Source: a virus. From it: DNA of 64,000 nucleotides. The translations under genes and the position numbers were made by a program. Positions 1,817 through 27,657 of this stretch are shown piece after piece. The notes beneath the pieces are model-generated. The model saw nothing but the letters and a program-made list of their open reading frames with translations. It had not been told where the DNA came from and searched no databases. Numbering within the stretch: position 1 is the first letter of the stretch; each line of letters opens with the position of its first letter. The stretch covers positions 64,001 to 128,000 of the IMG/VR virus record IMGVR_UViG_3300030329_006012; one strand, 5' to 3'.

Positions 1817-4800
1817 ATGGCCATTAAAAAAGTAAAAGGAATAAAAGTATCCAAGTCCCTGTCGGACAAGTTTAAGTTTGACAAAGAGGGAGAATCTCAA
1901 ATAGGCTCCGGCGGCGAAGACGTGCATGTCATTGTCGGAGAGTCGGACATTGGTAATGATATGTCTCTAACCGGACAGGCCCATTTTGAAAAAAGAATAG
2001 CAGAAACACTCTTTGGAGTCCCGCAGCTCAACGGCGCCACACAAACCGCCGAATTACAAGATCTGATAGACAATGCTGCCGACCACGAGGGTTTTATTAT
2101 TTATTTAACGGCCCCATCGACGACTGCCCCTTTTACCCAGGGAGAGAAGTTTTATTTTTGCGAAAATGGTGTTTGGCACCAAAGCCCGTTCACTTCTAGT
2201 GATTCTGATGAGCCAGATCCCGACGACACCGACGGCGACGGAATAGATGATGTTGAAGATCCGCAGGTTACAGAAACGGTATCCACCACAGGAGCCACTG
2301 TTCAGGCCAGCGCCGCCGCACTGGAAATCCCCCCAAATGCATTGCCCGCCGCAGTGGACATATCAGTTGAAGTTGTTGATCCGGCCACAGTCTCAGACGC
2401 CGTTCTTGATGAGAAAACATTAACATCAGACGTGATCACCTTAACTCCTCACGGACAACAGTTCGCTGAACCAGTGAAGGTCACGATTAATGTTTCTAAA
2501 TTCATATGGAACCCAGACATTTATATACAAAGCTCGCCCGGTGCCACTTGGGAGCTTCACGAAACCCCAGTAGATGTGGACGGGAACAAGGTTTCTTTTG
2601 AGGTAACTTCATTCAGCTCTTATGCTGTTGTGGAGCCACCCCCCTCTCAGTACATTGTACTTGTTTACGAGGGCGACGGGAACTATTCTTTCAGGGCCAA
2701 TTTCGGCGAGGCCATCGGCGGCTTTCAATTCACGTTCGACGCCGGCTCTGCAGGAACCATTACACCTACCGCCGGCGCCCAAGTCGCCGAAGCAGGATGG
2801 TACTTTACCGCAAGCCCATCCTCAAAGACGGTATTGGCGTTCCCGTTTGACGGCAGGGAAATCGGGGCTGGTGAAGTCGAGCTCATTAGGTTCCATGCCT
2901 CGTCTAATTACTTGCCAACACCTCACTCCAATCTTCTTGAACCAATAGTACTCTCAAGGATCGACGGCACTCGAATTGATATGTCCGGTTTTGATTTTGA
3001 CGTTACACAATTGGACAATGCAGGTAGTTTCTCCGGAGTGGGAGATGCTGACGGCGACGGCGCGAATGATAATGTTGACGCATTCCCGAATGATCCATCT
3101 GAAACCCAAGACACCGACGGCGACGGAGTAGGCGATAATGCAGACGACCTCCCCAATGATCCCAGTGAGACTGTAGATAGCGATGGCGATGGTGTTGGAG
3201 ACAATTCAGATTGGAAACCAAACGATCCCGCTGAATCTGCTGACACCGACGGTGACGGAGTTGGTGACAATGCCGACGCCTTCCCAAATGATGCATCTGA
3301 AACAGTAGATTCCGACAATGACGGAGTTGGAGACAATTCAGATTGGAAACCAAACGATCCCGCTGAATCTGCTGATAGTGATGGTGACGGAGTTGGAGAC
3401 AACGCCGACGCTTTCCCGAATGATGCTTTGGAGACTGTTGACACCGATGGCGATGGCACAGGCGACAATGCCGATGTCTTCCCCAACGATGCCACCGAAG
3501 ACACCGACACCGATGGCGATGGAGTTGGCGATAATCTCGACTACGCTCCAAGCGATCCGGCAATCACAATACCCCCACAGCCCCCAGCCGGCTCAACGTT
3601 CGTTCTTAGAGTCTACACAGATGATGAAGTCCACGTTCCGGGCTCCACATCCTGGGATCGGTGGGGAGGACAACTTGTTGTTGACGGAACTGATTACAGC
3701 GACCTTCTTTCTACAGAAAGTGAGGAAACCATAACACTACCATATGATGCTAATCAGGTTGGGTATAGCACTGTTGATATCAATGACATAGGCGGCGACG
3801 GGGGGATAAAAGTAGAATTTCTTCACCCCGTATATGGCTGGCAATTCCCCGTTTACAGCATGGGCTCCATGAACCAGTCCGGCTGGCCAAATGGTGCTCC
3901 CGCCGGGGCACAAAACTTTTCTGATCCAGCACACTGGGAGGGCCCCCTGCCTGTCACGTTTCAATACTTAAGCACAGACGCAACGGACTTCGTGGTCAGG
4001 GATCAGCAGAATAACGTAATGGTCTCTACCGATGATCTCGGATCTGTTCCGGCCCCCCCGATGGTATTCTTTGATAATGCCGATCTAGTTGTAAACGAGA
4101 CTCACCCCCATAACTCCAATCAGGAGGCGTATGCCGGCTGGCGCCTGATGACAGCACTGGCAGGCGATGTTTTGTCCATTGATACATCAAAGTTCACTAT
4201 TGAAGATCTAGATGATCTTCCCGCTAACACTACTGTTAAATTCTACTGGCGGATGAGAGAGGACAACGAGTCAGGAGGCAAAGATGATAAATACATTACA
4301 CCCGATGGCGACACTTCGTGGGGTCGGAATTCCGGTACCGCTACGAACACCATTACAATTCCCCAAGAATTTGCAGCGGCGAGTTGGTATGAGAAGCCGG
4401 CGAGCTCCTTTATTTATCTGGAGATGGATTTGGAAGACGCGGATGGAAATATAAAACAGATCAAAAACAACTCCGTCGGTGACACTGTGATCTACGCTTT
4501 AAATGAGAACGAAGTTGAAATGTGGAGCCGCTTAAATGACGGCCTTACAGTAGATACTCCTGTTGATTCAAGCCACATATCCCTCAGTCGTGAAAAGAAG
4601 TATGATAGCGAAGGTAGACTGTTTGTTGTGGAAGGAGACACTGTAACATTCACTCCACCAGAGCCAGTTGCCACAGTCAAGGATCCTTACGGAAACGATA
4701 TTTCAGGGCCCTTTGAAGCACAGTGGAGATCACGCGCCATCGTCGACAATGAATATGTTTATCATCTTTCTTCTGCACCTTGGATTGCCAATTTTTATTC

Positions 4801-19288: not shown

Positions 19289-19415
19289 AAAAAACCCACC
19301 TAATACTCATAAAAAACACTTTTTCGGCTTTTGAAACTATTAAACACTAATTAATATGGTATATAATAGTGTCATGGTTGTATCTGCAATCAGACCCAAA
19401 GAGGAGAACTCAAAG

Positions 19416-22229
19416 ATGTCAGCAAAAAAGTTTAGATTCGTATCCCCTGGAATTTTCTTGAATGAGATTGATAAATCTCTTTTACCAAAAGAGGGAGCCC
19501 CAGTTGGGCCCGTCGTTATTGGACGTACTGAGCGAGGTCCTGGCCTCCGACCCGTCACCGTTAACTCATTTTTGGAATTTACCCAGATTTTTGGAAACCC
19601 AATCCCCGGTGGCAACACCAGCGATGTTTGGAGAAATGGCAACCGGACGAGTCCGACTTATGCTTCCTATGCCGCACGTGCATGGTTGAAGAACGGCACC
19701 CCCCTGACTGTTGTTCGGGTTCTCGGAGCAGCCAGTCCAGATGCCGACCCGACCACTGGAGTAGCCGGCTGGAAAACAGAGAATTCACCAAACGTATTAG
19801 CTTCCGACAACGGAGGCGCCTTCGGCCTTTTCGTTTCCCCGCAAGTCCCATCAGGCGCAGACCCCATCAACGGAACATTGGCAGCCATCTGGTATCTTGA
19901 TCAAGGATCAATCAGGCTCGCTGGCGAAGGACAGAGCGGTAGCACTGTCGGTGCCTCCGGCTCCGGCGCTGGCCAACTGGTCAAGTGCAACGGTTCAGAT
20001 TTCCAGTTTAAGGCGATTATCACAAATGCTGAAGATAATTCAGTCTTAACCTCATCTTTTAATTTCGATGCATCTTCCGACAAGTATATCAGAAAAGTGT
20101 TTAGCACGAACCCAACTCTTTTGGGCTCAGATAATGGCTCTCCGATTGAATATTTTCTTGGAGAGAGCTTCGACTCTAGTTTGAAAAAGACCCTTCCTGC
20201 CAGCGCCGCTGGAGCAGAAGGATCAATGGCGTTTATTGTCGCCCTTAAAGGTGCAGACGACCGCCAAAAGGATTCCCAACCCGCAGAGAGCGGGATGGTG
20301 ATTTCCCAAACGACAGGAGATCCAGGCGAGGCTCTTGAGCCAAAAGACCTTTTTAAATTTGTCGCCTTAGACAGCGGAGAGTGGATTAACTCTAACGTGA
20401 AGGTTTCGATTCGAGACATCGCCCCCTCGACAAACCCCGACTTCTCCCCCTTCGGGACTTTTACTGTCGAGGTGAGAGACGCAAGAGACACTGATGCAAA
20501 GAAGGTTGTACTGGAGACATTTTCCGGATGTAATCTTGATCCTGATTCCACGAACTATATCGGCGCCAAGATTGGCAACAAATATGCTACTTGGAATTCC
20601 ACTGATCGCCGCTTCACTGAGTTTGGAGATTACGACAACAAATCCGCCTATATTTATGTTGATACATCCATTCTAGACAACAAGCATCCGGGCGAAACAC
20701 TTTTGCCTTTCGGATTTAAAGGTCCGTCGACCTACGCTGACTTAACGGGCGTCATCAACACAAGTCTTGGGGATTTCGGCGAAGTAGATATTCCACACGC
20801 ACCGAGCAACACTTTTGTGTCCGGCGGTGGTGGAGCAAACAATCCACTTACCATGTCAGGCCCTCAGATGTCGCTTCGATTAAGCAGTTCAACGGGCGGC
20901 TTTTCCGATCCTACGGACGCTTATTGGGGTGTCACCACCGATGCCCCAGGTACTACAGTGTTTGACGGCTCCTACGCAGACATGGCAGGAATGCTGCCGA
21001 GCGTTAATGATGACTACATAAAAGCGGATACTTTTACGTTTTCGCTGGACAATGTTACATATGTTTCTAGTTCAACTACTGGTATTGTAGAGTGGCAGGC
21101 TCGGTATGGTTCCGATCTCTATGAAAATGACCTCTCTATTAATGCAGGGGGCGACACACCAGACGGACCACTCAGTGCCAGTTACGAGAATGTTCTTAAC
21201 GCCGGCCTGAATCGCTTTACGATGCCAATGGTTGGCGGATTCGATGGTCTCGACATCAAACACCGCGACCCACTTTCCAATGCTATCCTCAGCGAGAAGG
21301 ACGAATTAACGAGCTATGCCTTTAACTCGATTAAGAGATCTATTGACAGCGTTTCAGACCCAGAGGTGGTAGAGATGAATGTTGCCACCGTTCCTGGTGT
21401 CACCAACGAGTCACTAACCAACCATCTTGTGCAGGTTTGTGAAACCAGAGCAGATTGCTTAGCCATCATTGACCTACCAGGAGGCTACGAGACAGAATAT
21501 GAGTCATCCGCAGAAGCCTCAGAAAGAGTAGGCAGTGTTGATGCTACTGTCACAGCCCTCAAAAACAGAGCCATGAATAGCAGTTATGCATGCTCTTACT
21601 ATCCTTGGGTACAGTCAAAGGATGAATTCGGCTCAGGAAAGGTACTGTGGCTTCCACCGTCAGTGGCAGCTTTGGGTACTTTCGCCAGCAATGACCGAAA
21701 GTCAGCCCCTTGGTTTGCTCCCGCAGGATTCACTCGCGGCGGACTTTCCGACGGTGCAGCAGGTATTCCGGTAATTGGAGTACGTGAACACTTAACTCGC
21801 AAAATGCGAGATAAACTGTATGACAACAATGTTAACCCAATTGCTAAATTTCCAGCAGAAGGGATTGTTATTTTTGGACAAAAGACGATGCAGGCAGTTC
21901 CATCTGCCCTTGATCGCGTGAATGTTCGACGTATGCTCTTGCACGTCAAGAAGGGAATCTCAAACATTTCCTCTACCCTATTATTTGACCAGAACGTTAA
22001 AACAACCTGGGCAAGATTCTTGGGCGAAGCAGAGCCTTTCTTGAGAGATGTTCAGGCCCAACTGGGTTTGACTGAATACAAGATTGTTTTGGATGAAACC
22101 ACTACCACTCCAGACTTAATAGATCGCAACATTATGTATGCAAAAATCTTCTTGAAGCCTGCACGATCAATCGAGTTTATCGCAATTGATTTTGTAATTC
22201 AAAGAACTGGAGCATCTTTTGAAGATTAA
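19416..22229 (+). CDS. gp18: contractile tail sheath protein (gp18-like)
   Basis: FVSPGIFLNEIDKS, WFAPAGFTRG, LYDNNVNPIAKFP, IFGQKT, LDRVNVRRML, IFLKPARSIEFIAIDF; start moved to ATG 19416 behind AGGAG. Confidence 0.97.
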   Translation: MSAKKFRFVSPGIFLNEIDKSLLPKEGAPVGPVVIGRTERGPGLRPVTVNSFLEFTQIFGNPIPGGNTSDVWRNGNRTSPTYASYAARAWLKNGTPLTVVRVLGAASPDADPTTGVAGWKTENSPNVLASDNGGAFGLFVSPQVPSGADPINGTLAAIWYLDQGSIRLAGEGQSGSTVGASGSGAGQLVKCNGSDFQFKAIITNAEDNSVLTSSFNFDASSDKYIRKVFSTNPTLLGSDNGSPIEYFLGESFDSSLKKTLPASAAGAEGSMAFIVALKGADDRQKDSQPAESGMVISQTTGDPGEALEPKDLFKFVALDSGEWINSNVKVSIRDIAPSTNPDFSPFGTFTVEVRDARDTDAKKVVLETFSGCNLDPDSTNYIGAKIGNKYATWNSTDRRFTEFGDYDNKSAYIYVDTSILDNKHPGETLLPFGFKGPSTYADLTGVINTSLGDFGEVDIPHAPSNTFVSGGGGANNPLTMSGPQMSLRLSSSTGGFSDPTDAYWGVTTDAPGTTVFDGSYADMAGMLPSVNDDYIKADTFTFSLDNVTYVSSSTTGIVEWQARYGSDLYENDLSINAGGDTPDGPLSASYENVLNAGLNRFTMPMVGGFDGLDIKHRDPLSNAILSEKDELTSYAFNSIKRSIDSVSDPEVVEMNVATVPGVTNESLTNHLVQVCETRADCLAIIDLPGGYETEYESSAEASERVGSVDATVTALKNRAMNSSYACSYYPWVQSKDEFGSGKVLWLPPSVAALGTFASNDRKSAPWFAPAGFTRGGLSDGAAGIPVIGVREHLTRKMRDKLYDNNVNPIAKFPAEGIVIFGQKTMQAVPSALDRVNVRRMLLHVKKGISNISSTLLFDQNVKTTWARFLGEAEPFLRDVQAQLGLTEYKIVLDETTTTPDLIDRNIMYAKIFLKPARSIEFIAIDFVIQRTGASFED

Positions 22230-22284: not shown

Positions 22285-22854
22285 ATGGCAAACTTTTGGA
22301 CAAGCCCCAACCGAGACCCGAAAAGGGCATATAGATTTTTAGTCAACTTGGCAGCATTTGACGGAGGCGCACAGTGGTACGCTAAGTCAGCAACGAAGCC
22401 AAAGTTCACCGTTACGAATCAAGAGCACAAATACATCAATCATACGTTTAATTATCCTGGCCGAGTAACGTGGGAGCCGATCACCATTACAATTGTTGAT
22501 CCTGTCGATCCCAACGCCGCTCGCCAAGCCGCAGAAATCCTCCAAGCATCCGGCTATTATATTCCGGGTAATGAAAACGCACCTATTACAACCATTAATA
22601 AGAAAGACGCCACCGAAGCCATGAAGCGTGTAGAAATCATGCAGATTGGAGAAAATGGCGACGATATTTTGGAAAAATGGGTGTTAAACAATGCTTGGAT
22701 TGAGACAATCAATTTCAGCGACTTGGACTATGAGTCTGATGAACTGACCACTATTGAGCTCACTATCCGCTATGACTGGGCAGAGTTAGAAGTTACCGAC
22801 GCAGACGGCACCACGACTCCTTATTTTACGACCAACAATAATCCCGGCGCATAA
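22285..22854 (+). CDS. gp19: tail tube protein (gp19-like)
   Basis: Follows sheath; YPGRVTWEPITIT, EKWVLNNAWI, LDYESDELTTIELTIRYDWA. Confidence 0.9.
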   Translation: MANFWTSPNRDPKRAYRFLVNLAAFDGGAQWYAKSATKPKFTVTNQEHKYINHTFNYPGRVTWEPITITIVDPVDPNAARQAAEILQASGYYIPGNENAPITTINKKDATEAMKRVEIMQIGENGDDILEKWVLNNAWIETINFSDLDYESDELTTIELTIRYDWAELEVTDADGTTTPYFTTNNNPGA

Positions 22855-22870: not shown

Positions 22871-23770
22871 ATGTCATCAACTAGAAATAACCAAGCGAGG
22901 CTCGACACTACTTCAGTGGACGAGGCTCCGCAACCCGCTAAAGAAACGAAAAAAGAACAGGCAGCATCGTTGAGCTTTGCTGTACCTACTGAATTTGTTG
23001 ACTTACCATCTCGCGGCCTGTACTATCCGGAAGGCCACCCACTTCACGGTGTGGAGAGTATTGAGATCAAACATATGACTGCCAAAGAAGAAGATATCCT
23101 GTCTTCTGAGACGCTGATCAAAAAAGGCGTCGCAATAGACAGGATGTTACAAAGTGTAATGATTGATAAGGCCATTAAAATTTCCGACATGTTGATCGGT
23201 GATAAGAACGCCCTCACAGTCGCCGCTCGCGTTACTGGCTATGGTGCCGAGTATGAAACTCGCCTTGCATGCCCATCTTGCGATTCTGAGCAGGAGTTCG
23301 AATTTGACTTGGGCGATCTTGAATTTGTTGGGGCATCTTTTGACGATAGAAGTGAATTAAACAATCTTCTCGACGGGGTGGAAATCACCGACGACAACAC
23401 ATTCATTATCACGCTACCAAAAAGTAATCACAGTGTGGAATTAAAAATGCTCACAGGAGCAGACGAAGATAAACTTAATAAATTCCAAAATAAAAAGATT
23501 AAATCCCAGAAGGACAAGCTTCTTCCGACTACCTTGTTGACAGATACCTTAAAAATGGTCATCATCAGTGTCTCCGGGGTTAAGAGCCGAGATCAGATCA
23601 ACCAGTTTGTTGATAATATGCCGGCGATGGACTCTCGGTATCTGAGAGGGGTATACCAGAAGTTGGCGCCAAACATTGACATGACCCAGACGTTTGTCTG
23701 TGGAGATTGTGGACACGAGCAGGACCTGGAGGTTCCTGTTACTACGGACTTTTTTTGGCCTAGACAGTGA
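22871..23770 (+). CDS. tail/baseplate assembly chaperone (T4 gp26-like)
   Basis: LPSRGLYY, IKHMTAKEEDIL, CPSC and CGDC pairs, FFWP end. Confidence 0.75.
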   Translation: MSSTRNNQARLDTTSVDEAPQPAKETKKEQAASLSFAVPTEFVDLPSRGLYYPEGHPLHGVESIEIKHMTAKEEDILSSETLIKKGVAIDRMLQSVMIDKAIKISDMLIGDKNALTVAARVTGYGAEYETRLACPSCDSEQEFEFDLGDLEFVGASFDDRSELNNLLDGVEITDDNTFIITLPKSNHSVELKMLTGADEDKLNKFQNKKIKSQKDKLLPTTLLTDTLKMVIISVSGVKSRDQINQFVDNMPAMDSRYLRGVYQKLAPNIDMTQTFVCGDCGHEQDLEVPVTTDFFWPRQ

Positions 23771-23945
23771 GTATATTGAATCTGTTTATGAGGAAATTTT
23801 CGCTCTAAAGTATCACGGTAATTGGGCATTTGCTGAAGCTTACACACTTCCTGTCCAGATCCGCCGATGGTTCCTCAGAAGACTTCAGAAGCAAAAAGTT
23901 ATGGAAAACGAGGCCGCTGAGAATGCGTCCAGGGGAAGAAGATAG
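23757..23945 (+). CDS. gp51-like/tail-assembly chaperone extension, probably reached by frameshift from 22871..23770
   Basis: YEEIFALKYHGNW.F.EAYTLPVQIRRWFLRRL motif; no ATG/GTG/TTG in the conserved part; T7 run at 23750-23756. Confidence 0.6.
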   Translation, partial: GLDSEYIESVYEEIFALKYHGNWAFAEAYTLPVQIRRWFLRRLQKQKVMENEAAENASRGRR

Positions 23946-24023
23946 AGAGAGATTTTATAAGTCCTCTCTATTTTGCTTTATATACTAATTATTAAGTGTT
24001 ATAATACCATTGGAGGTTTTACA

Positions 24024-24350
24024 ATGGACAAGGAACTACAAGAATATACAATCGATTTGGGCGCCGCAAAGCGAGGAGAGGTAAATGAGAGTTATCTAAC
24101 CATGTTTGGGTGGGCCATTAAATCTATTATGGGCGCTATGTTTGGGGGCTCCAAAATCCCCGTCACTGTCAAAGGATCTCAGAGCCAAGTGCGCGATTTC
24201 GCCAAAGTCTTGGGGAAAGAGAAAAAATATCTCAATAACTATAAGAAGTTTGGGCTGGACAACCCACAGACGTACAAGAGCAGATATGCGCTAGACTCGG
24301 CTGTCAAGAAGTTCGAGAGAACCACTGGCTTAAAGTGGCCCTTCAAATAA
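24024..24350 (+). CDS. hypothetical late protein
   Basis: ATG 24024 behind GGAGG and ACTAATTA motif; ends TGLKWPFK. Confidence 0.75.
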   Translation: MDKELQEYTIDLGAAKRGEVNESYLTMFGWAIKSIMGAMFGGSKIPVTVKGSQSQVRDFAKVLGKEKKYLNNYKKFGLDNPQTYKSRYALDSAVKKFERTTGLKWPFK

Positions 24351-26565: not shown

Positions 26566-27315
26566 ATGGTAAAACCTAAAACTATTCCAGACATATCATC
26601 AGCAGAGGCCGCACTCTATAACAAGTTTCATATACAGCTGCAACACCTGCCCAGCGAAAAAAGCGTTTACTTTAAGGCGATGGTTACTCAGTTCGAAGAT
26701 CAATATACTTCTGATTGGGCGCTGGAGCATGTTTTTGGGAGAATGGATCCTGTTCGCACCTTCAGGGGAACACAGAGGATAATAACTCTTGGTTGGGACG
26801 TTGTAGCCGGCAGTCTAGAAGAGGCTCGTCATAATCTGGCAGAATGTTCCACTCTACTCTCTATGCTTTATCCATCTTATGAAGGCGGCGCTCCAAATGT
26901 AGCCGACGCCACAGCGCCGGAACCCGGTACCCCGACCCAAGAGGCCAATGAAGCCGCCACCACTGAGCCACAGCAGGGCCCAACCACCACCGGTGGTAAC
27001 GCAGCAACTATCAAATCAGCACCACTTTTCAGGATAAAGTTTGCCAATCTCATTCAAGACACAAAAAATCCCACCCCGACGCTCGCCATTAACGATGGCT
27101 TGATTGGTAGCATCGATGGGCTAACTTATGCACCAGATGTGGAGCAAGGGTTTTTCGACCCAAAGGACGAAAAGGGAGTCCTATACCCCCAGACTATAAA
27201 ACTTTCTTTTGGGTTCTATGTTGCACACGATCACCCACTTGGTTGGAGTAGCGAAAACAAAGGCGCCCTCCGATCAGGTACGGTATTCCCGTATCCAAAA
27301 AAGGGAGGCAGCTAG
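26566..27315 (+). CDS. baseplate / tail-tube initiator protein (gp48/gp54-like)
   Basis: FEDQYTSDW...VFGRMDPV.TF.GT.R.I.LGWDV pattern; position after tape measure. Confidence 0.6.
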   Translation: MVKPKTIPDISSAEAALYNKFHIQLQHLPSEKSVYFKAMVTQFEDQYTSDWALEHVFGRMDPVRTFRGTQRIITLGWDVVAGSLEEARHNLAECSTLLSMLYPSYEGGAPNVADATAPEPGTPTQEANEAATTEPQQGPTTTGGNAATIKSAPLFRIKFANLIQDTKNPTPTLAINDGLIGSIDGLTYAPDVEQGFFDPKDEKGVLYPQTIKLSFGFYVAHDHPLGWSSENKGALRSGTVFPYPKKGGS

Positions 27316-27318
27316 TAA

Positions 27319-27657
27319 ATGTCGAGATATAAAAACACAACCATCAAAGTGAACAATTGGGAACTATATAAGAAACTGCGGAAGGAAAGAGGGATCCCAG
27401 GCGGAATCACTCAATACAACTTAACAAAACTTCCCAAACTCACCGTAGAGGACGTCTCCACCGTCAATTCTGTTGGCCACGTATGGTCAACTGGAGACAG
27501 ACTATATAAACTTGCATCTCAGCACTATGGGGATCCTAAGCTCTGGTGGATTATCGCCTGGTACAACAACAAGCCCACAGAGGGGCATCTGGCCATCGGA
27601 GAGATCATTCAAATACCGCTCCCTCTTGAGCATATTTATAGCTTCTTGAGGATGTAA
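27319..27657 (+). CDS. LysM-like baseplate protein (gp53/tail X-like)
   Basis: HVWSTGDRLYKLASQHYGDPKLWWIIAWYN....E....GE.I.IP. Confidence 0.8.
   Translation: MSRYKNTTIKVNNWELYKKLRKERGIPGGITQYNLTKLPKLTVEDVSTVNSVGHVWSTGDRLYKLASQHYGDPKLWWIIAWYNNKPTEGHLAIGEIIQIPLPLEHIYSFLRM

Follow-up and report, generated by a model that had tools for sequence, protein, structure and literature searches.

Does a T4-like phage make one tail assembly chaperone from its chaperone gene, or two? The question is raised by a short run of T residues near the 3' end of such a gene in an uncultured marine phage. The DNA analysed here (the window) is a stretch of 64,000 nucleotides, bases 64001-128000 of the 190,225-bp IMG/VR virus record IMGVR_UViG_3300030329_006012, which CheckV rates 100% complete. 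Its chaperone gene, open reading frame 1 (ORF1), encodes 299 amino acids, and a second frame without a usable start of its own (ORF2) continues from the T run in the +1 direction (Table 1). The sequence evidence makes it probable that the genome's sole chaperone gene of the gp26/gp51 family contains a programmed +1 ribosomal frameshift, which would add ORF2 to ORF1 and give a long form of 357 amino acids. This T4-like phage most likely makes both a short and a long chaperone from one gene.

The reading frames are simple. ORF1 ends GAC TTT TTT TGG CCT AGA CAG TGA, in which bases 23750-23756 form the T7 run. In the +1 frame the same letters read TTT TTT GGC CTA GAC AGT GAG TAT, and the frame stays open for 62 codons until the TAG at 23943-23945. 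A single four-base step at the T run is enough to yield the 357-residue product. All of this agrees with the original prediction, which had described the 299-residue gene end, the T run, the 62-codon frame and a fusion of about 357 residues. That prediction had also placed the first start codon of the +1 frame in its last 11 codons. The first ATG, GTG or TTG past the slip is in fact an ATG at ORF2 codon 49, that is, in the last 14 codons. T7 runs as such are not in excess in the window (20 observed, 29.6 expected); the feature that stands above chance is the conserved 62-codon +1 frame rather than the run itself.

Conservation of this layout carries most of the argument. Relatives were fetched with ORF1 alone as query, blind to ORF2, which brought in 80 IMG/VR loci with 42-73% identity to ORF1. 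Wherever ORF2 is detectable in the IMG/VR loci it lies in the +1 frame and aligns from ORF2 residue 1, and the layout was counted in 82 of 82 loci. The junction reads TTTTTTTGGCCT, with the full T7 run, in 69 of these, TTCTTTTGGCCT in six and TTTCTTTGGCCT in one; TTTTTTTGGTTT, TTTTTTTGGCCA and TTTTTTTGGTCT are found in three, two and one, respectively. One further locus has FFYPR. YTT_TGG stands at the junction in all 82 contigs. Conservation of the overlap at the two Phe codons and of the T run had been proposed as a check; the first holds, and the second holds for the majority with seven T, not for the variants with shorter runs. Past W-P the 0-frame tail differs among relatives in length as well as in sequence. 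In the +1 frame the conserved pattern is GL...Y.E.VYE.FF.LKYHGGWSF.EAYNLPVGLR.WF..RL, and conservation begins at the slip site, with residues G1-L2.

These counts bear directly on the possibility that one T too many was introduced by a homopolymer error in sequencing or assembly, or that the gene is a recent pseudogene, the true gene being a single ORF of 357 codons. Homopolymers are error-prone, a run of six T would restore one frame, and long forms joined in frame do occur in other lineages. Against this, the out-of-frame layout is present in 82 independent metagenome contigs and in at least seven isolate or complete phages, at 23-73% protein identity, and the FF slip motif is gone from the forms joined in frame. 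A scan of bacterial genomes with the ORF1 alignment found only four phage-like contigs, binned into metagenome-assembled genomes; these add to the same side by their ORF1 similarity, their frames not having been re-checked. The explanation as a whole is scarcely credible, and on this comparison sequencing error is excluded.

The layout extends well beyond the close relatives. Seven distant phages have the +1 arrangement with UUU_Y at the aligned FF motif. For example, the junction is AAC TTT TTT TGG in Microcystis phage Mel-JY01, AGC TTT CTT TGG in Flavobacterium phage immuto and AAC TTT CTA in megaphage LR756508. Bacillus phage HSE3 and Streptococcus phage GXN1 share TTC TTT CGT, Bacillus phage SP-15 has TTT TTT CAC, and Listeria phage LIS04 has TTT TTT AGT. 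The records of these seven phages hold no frameshift annotation. In Mel-JY01, immuto, HSE3 and SP-15 (loci L002, L003, L086 and L088) the ORF2 homologue is annotated as a separate hypothetical protein, with differing and arbitrary starts; these are probably mis-annotations. A profile search with ORF2 over 1.8 billion proteins returned 710 homologues. Among the best 150 of the 710, nearly all are 37-165 amino acids long and their match starts are scattered, as would be expected if gene callers must guess a start.

The direction of the slip can be read from the variant junctions. At every +1 locus examined the P-site tRNA could re-pair in the +1 frame, on UUU_Y or CUU_U. The sites TTC_TTT_T, TTT_CTT_T, TTC_TTT_C and TTT_CTA have runs of only three or four T and the same layout. 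Such short-run variants fit only a +1 slip of tRNA-Phe from UUU to UUU or UUC, and +1 is thus favoured over -2. The alternative is that the long form arises when RNA polymerase stutters at the T7 run and drops one U in some transcripts, or when the ribosome slips by -2. It would explain why most loci keep all seven T and why the first Phe codon is so often TTT, and a bacterial homologue joined in frame, with DFFFGEL at the junction, resembles a -2 product. The layout is nevertheless kept with three or four T at TTC_TTT_TGG (six loci), TTT_CTT_TGG (one locus), TTC_TTT_CGT (Firmicute phages) and TTT_CTA (megaphage LR756508), where re-pairing at -2 does not fit and stuttering is unlikely. The long homopolymer that transcriptional slippage would call for in every member is replaced in several by TTCTTTT, TTTCTTT, TTCTTTC or TTTCTA. 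Efficient slippage by bacterial polymerase usually needs about nine T, and seven is fewer. The invariant UGG in the A site and the constraint just upstream of the slip also point to the ribosome. Stuttering or a -2 slip is therefore unlikely as the source of the long form. The direction had been left as +1, or else -2; the first survives, and the second is disfavoured by TTC_TTT_TGG, TTT_CTT_TGG and TTC_TTT_CGT. The wider claim, a slip in a direction other than -1 that fuses the chaperone to the +1 ORF, is supported by the conservation and by the short-run variants.

Codon choice around the slip was compared over 58 unique junction contexts, which come from phylogenetically related loci. The second Phe codon is TTT in all 58, against a background of 74% (p 3e-8), and the A-site codon is TGG in all 58. 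The first Phe codon is TTT in 54, above the expectation from codon usage (p 2e-4). A constraint is also seen upstream. The synonymous position 23746, in the codon before D/E, is G in 44 of the 58, compared with 15.5% G at four-fold ORF1 sites (binomial p 2e-24), and this G creates GGAC or GGAG ending 3 nucleotides before the slip codon. By analogy, GGAC could possibly act as a stimulator like that of prfB.

Several points weigh against a programmed +1 shift. The p-values just given overstate independence, because the loci are related. The enrichment of TTT at the first Phe codon indicates that a longer U run is favoured, and some contribution of -2 slipping or stuttering is possible where the run is T7. 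No RNA structure is predicted downstream of the slip site (z +1.2), and UGG is neither a classical slow codon nor a stop. The phage is uncultured and known here from metagenome assembly sequence alone. In many relatives an ATG stands at ORF2 codon 7. In a 595-kb megaphage (locus L090; LR756511.1, 457390-463106 reverse complement, about 3150-3430), ORF1 runs on for about 20 residues past FF, and the ORF2-like peptide appears to start at an ATG that overlaps the ORF1 stop (TAATG). The codon-7 ATGs and this overlap suggest that independent expression of ORF2 is possible in some lineages.

The last two observations also suit the view that ORF2 is a separate small gene and that no fusion is made: its translation would begin at TTG 23694 or at some non-canonical codon, possibly through re-initiation after the ORF1 stop. 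That TTG opens the listed 83-codon ORF, and in public records the homologues stand as hypothetical proteins in their own right. Ahead of the slip, this window has no other start-type codon in the open +1 frame; the TTG lies inside ORF1, has no Shine-Dalgarno-like sequence ahead, and the stretch from it to the slip is ORF1 read out of frame. It had been described from the start as an internal TTG without a ribosome binding site, and this was correct. Start positions are not conserved among the relatives. Of the 82 loci, 18 lack any ATG, GTG or TTG in the +1 frame ahead of the slip, and in eight of these 18 the next start-type codon is at least 39 codons downstream. Homologues with a normal start codon and ribosome binding site for ORF2 had been named as grounds against the fusion; these start-less loci stand on one side of that question and the codon-7 ATGs on the other. 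Conservation that begins exactly at the slip site, and fused homologues joined in frame in phage-like and contractile injection loci, are hard to accommodate with a separate gene, which we consider quite improbable.

If a programmed +1 frameshift is taken as the explanation, events at the site can be sketched as follows. Most ribosomes would read through UUU UUU UGG CCU AGA CAG UGA and release the 299-residue short form. In a minority, the peptidyl-tRNA-Phe on UUU 23753-23755 would slip to UUU 23754-23756 with UGG in the A site. GGC at 23757-23759 would then be decoded, and translation would continue over the 62 codons to UAG 23943-23945. The outcome would be a long form with a C-terminal domain of three helices. 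If the parallel with lambda G/GT and T4 gp26/gp51 holds, the tape measure protein would be coated by short and long form alike; through its additional C-terminal domain, the long form would connect this complex with the tube or hub as the tail assembles. What the sequences show is the layout and its conservation, the absence of an independent start codon, the natural in-frame fusions and the family assignment; we infer the slip itself, how efficient it is, the action of the stimulator and what each form does.

ORF1 belongs to a known family. It matches PF12322 (T4_baseplate) over profile positions 13-219 with an E-value of 1.7e-13 (51.2 bits, cut-off 24.5), and its PHROG match is phrog_150, 'baseplate hub'. 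T4 gp26 (208 amino acids) and gp51 (249 amino acids) both match PF12322 end to end, gp51 with about 48 extra C-terminal residues. Since both span the whole model they are paralogues, and ORF1 would correspond to a short form and ORF1 plus ORF2 to a gp51-like long form. T4 gp26 ends right after CxxC...EFF, which aligns with CGDCG...DFF of ORF1. The original prediction spoke of a 'gp26-gp51-like fusion'; its idea of two forms holds, and its wording is loose, as gp26 and gp51 are whole-length paralogues. It was right that the two are separate genes in T4, where genes 26 and 51 are moreover transcribed divergently. The present genome contains a single PF12322 gene and a single ORF2-like domain, not two genes of the T4 type. 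At 190 kb it is also slightly under the usual threshold for a jumbo phage, as which it had been introduced. ORF1 has two CxxC ribbons, C134/C137 and C277/C280. It also resembles an internal duplication, with weak chaperone-like structural matches that fall separately on residues 25-133 and 175-267.

ORF2 is harder to place. BLASTP, a hidden Markov model of ORF2 and profile-profile comparison with the gp51 alignment gave nothing significant between ORF2 and gp51 or its C-terminal tail. By eye the two tails share a pattern, D/E-E-I-F...H...P..R, which is not counted as evidence. ORF2 scores 17.3 bits (E 0.005) against DUF6760 (PF20546), below the gathering score of 27 bits. Weak DUF6760 matches are found in 20 of 32 members of the ORF2 family, the best at 6.6e-5.

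The predicted structure of the fused product is a confident one. AlphaFold2, run on the fused product with a 22-row alignment, gave a model with a mean predicted local distance difference test score (pLDDT) of 86.6 and a predicted template modelling score of 0.76. The helices of ORF2 are predicted at residues 299-315, 320-323 and 328-355, with block-mean pLDDT of 77-95 over residues 291-357. A Foldseek search of the PDB had no match at E 0.001 or better. The top three matches to residues 25-133 in a wide VIA-align search, all below the tool's trust level, were 3fgx (Z 6.7), YqbN 3klu (6.1) and HK97 2ob9 (5.9). The last is named as the HK97 tail assembly chaperone; YqbN we take to be XkdN-like, as presumably 3fgx is too. 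The resemblance of this part of the model to a tail assembly chaperone fold is suggestive. The structural matches in BFVD include many T4-like 'baseplate hub' proteins, the best at E 6e-21. Some, with lengths of 312-475 amino acids and alignments that exceed 320 columns, may be further in-frame long forms. An assignment of ORF2 as an Afp6/Alg6 plug was dropped; no plug chain of a contractile injection system (Alg6 or Pvc6) was matched at E up to 1. The ORF2 profile matched only DNA polymerase III theta among solved structures, at chance level.

In several lineages the two parts are encoded in other ways. Two clusters of metagenomic proteins hold fusions. A 313-residue JGI protein (P0139) is a single ORF collinear with the 357-residue product across the junction (E 2e-32). 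A second single ORF of 316 residues (P0152; ENA, six members) is 50% identical to the first at 98% coverage, and is likewise collinear through the junction. In this pair the FF motif is lost at the junction, which reads ES-MLDLP or ES-LLDLP, as expected once a slip is no longer needed. A word-based search on ORF2 alone gave no fused candidates; the fusions came from the profile search and from P0139. In Bacteroidota genomes, DUF6760 is in frame with PF12322 at three loci (L101, L102 and L103). The junction of the third reads ...DLQDFFFGELRTS..., and the first reaches 28.6 bits against DUF6760 (gathering score 27). The third is part of an extracellular contractile injection system (eCIS) locus, L103/L104, with genes for sheath, tube, the fused protein, a 429-residue protein, Pvc16_N, an AAA ATPase and eCIS_core. 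At L104 (G156:C20:7000-26000) the in-frame module follows sheath and tube.

A third kind of junction is found at L100/L105, where DUF6760 is in the -1 frame at a classical heptamer, U_UUU_UUA. L105 (G131:C1:2258000-2276000) is a bacterial sheath-tube locus in which the module is joined at T_TTT_TTA; from its sequence, this bacterial chromosome may carry a -1 frameshift that has escaped annotation. Judged by sequence, the PF12322 and DUF6760-like parts are one module, joined in at least four ways. A broader proposal, which falls somewhat short of an even chance, is that this is an ancient module of the contractile systems of phages and eCIS with four interchangeable solutions: a +1 shift at UUU_Y, a -1 shift at U_UUU_UUA, in-frame fusion and the T4 paralogues. 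The +1 version would then be widespread and unannotated, occurring at a sense codon with a prfB-like upstream stimulator in hundreds of marine phage genomes.

The gene neighbourhood is that of a G/GT-type chaperone pair, since ORF1 and ORF2 (22871-23945) lie between the tube and tape measure genes. The hairpin across the ORF2 stop runs into a U-rich tract and probably serves the unit as its intrinsic terminator; a consensus scan did not call it. As this hairpin comes after ORF2, not after ORF1, the transcription unit appears to end after ORF2. The product of the 108-residue gene between chaperone and tape measure is clearly conserved, and its homologue at a related locus (L092) likewise ends ...KWPFK. 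Behind the tape measure come a 249-residue gene (26566-27315), a 112-residue gene (27319-27657) and a 1081-residue gene. The best PHROG match of the 112-residue product is phrog_7145, baseplate wedge subunit (1.1e-08); the endolysin family phrog_380 matches more weakly (0.001). No tRNA genes were found in the window, and blastn against 50,697 phage records gave no DNA match.

Table 1. Coordinates of the chaperone locus and its neighbours in the window
Feature	Position	Strand	Details
Tail sheath	19356-22229	+	
Tail tube, directly upstream of ORF1	22285..22854	+	phrog_4542 2.5e-33; Phage_T4_gp19 slightly under its cut-off
ORF1, tail assembly chaperone, short form, 299 aa	22871..23770	+	ORF list, PF12322, phrog_150
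GGAC, candidate Shine-Dalgarno-like stimulator	23746..23749	+	ends 3 nt before slip codon
Putative shift site UUU_UUU_UGG	23750..23758	+	
ORF2, +1-frame extension, 62 codons + TAG	23757..23945	+	helical domain distantly related to DUF6760; without usable own start
0-frame stop TGA	23768..23770	+	four codons past shift site; ends short form
Hairpin across ORF2 stop, then U-rich tract	23936..23982	+	-16.4 kcal/mol, z -4.69, 0/200 shuffles as good
Promoter-like site ahead of next gene	23977..24005	+	TTTATA, 17 nt, TATAAT, with TG; consensus match only
108-aa gene between chaperone and tape measure	24024-24350	+	no Pfam/PHROG match
Tape measure, 729 aa	24365..26554	+	phrog_167 8e-18

The closest functional parallel is the G/GT pair of lambda. 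Its frameshift, and the conservation of the shift among tail chaperones, were reportedly described by Levin et al. in 1993 and by Xu, Hendrix and Duda in 2004. Lambda gpG/gpGT and the conserved chaperone frameshift are reviewed in PMC5009743. Both systems have the position between tube and tape measure, a short product, a long product extended at its C-terminus from an overlapping ORF without a start, and a layout conserved despite sequence divergence. They differ in the shift, which here would be +1 at UUU_UGG, whereas the lambda type is -1 at a G_GGA_AAG-type heptamer. The short form here is a 299-residue PF12322 protein with two ribbons, compared with about 140 residues for a G-like protein, and in place of a predicted downstream stimulator there is a possible Shine-Dalgarno-like element upstream.

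With T4 gp26/gp51 the locus shares the Pfam family of ORF1, a C-terminal CxxC...FF ending like that of gp26, and short and long forms. T4 uses two divergent paralogues, whereas this phage has one gene and a putative frameshift; homology of ORF2 to the gp51 tail could not be shown. In the eCIS loci the same two domains, PF12322 and DUF6760, occur in the same order and in the same place after sheath and tube. Neither kind of join seen there involves a +1 shift: the domains are in frame at L101 and L103/L104 and meet at a -1 heptamer at L100/L105.

For the mechanism, the nearest likeness is to Escherichia coli prfB, the gene for RF2, with a +1 shift at CUU_UGA and a Shine-Dalgarno-like sequence 3 nucleotides upstream. 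Work on prfB by Curran (1993) is cited in PMC10274946. In both cases a P-site tRNA would slip +1 onto UUU, and GGA(C/G) stands here at the same 3-nucleotide spacing, under synonymous constraint. Here a sense codon, UGG, occupies the A site, in prfB a stop; the element has only 3-4 nucleotides, and there is no autoregulatory logic. A +1 tail chaperone frameshift has been proposed for the archaeal myovirus HSTV-2 (PMC5009743). It too is a myovirus whose chaperone shift is thought to be +1; it belongs to another host domain, and the likeness is one of description.

How T4-like phages make their two chaperones has been considered before. The title of a 2022 paper by Vladimirov, Gautam and Davidson (Virology 566:9-15) suggests a mechanism outside translation in T4-like phages, which speaks for the alternative of polymerase stuttering. 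In the 2016 recoding review (PMC5009743), T4 is named as the exception to the near-universal G/GT frameshift of long-tailed phages. According to the PRFect paper (PMC10274946), Vladimirov et al. (2022) report that some T4-like phages carry a short gene and a longer fusion gene instead of frameshifting. A 2025 Pakpunavirus paper (PMC12846349) cites the same work for poly-T frameshift signals in T4-like short-form (TAC-N) genes. To judge from these second-hand accounts, part of the present finding may already be in print (Vladimirov et al. 2022), which makes its novelty uncertain. In the literature searched, neither PF12322 nor DUF6760 was mentioned in connection with frameshifting.

It had been anticipated that this locus would extend the G/GT rule to a T4-like phage, in a direction other than -1, and the comparative evidence for this is strong. 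The finding suggests that in a large environmental clade the T4-type chaperone family obeys the G/GT rule, by the rarer +1 shift and at a sense codon. Once the shift is recognised, many annotations would be put right in public records, which now list the extension as an isolated hypothetical protein whose start is arbitrary. Mechanistic work on +1 shifting would gain a small natural site, and DUF6760 is connected, through its distant relative ORF2, with the assembly of phage tails and eCIS.

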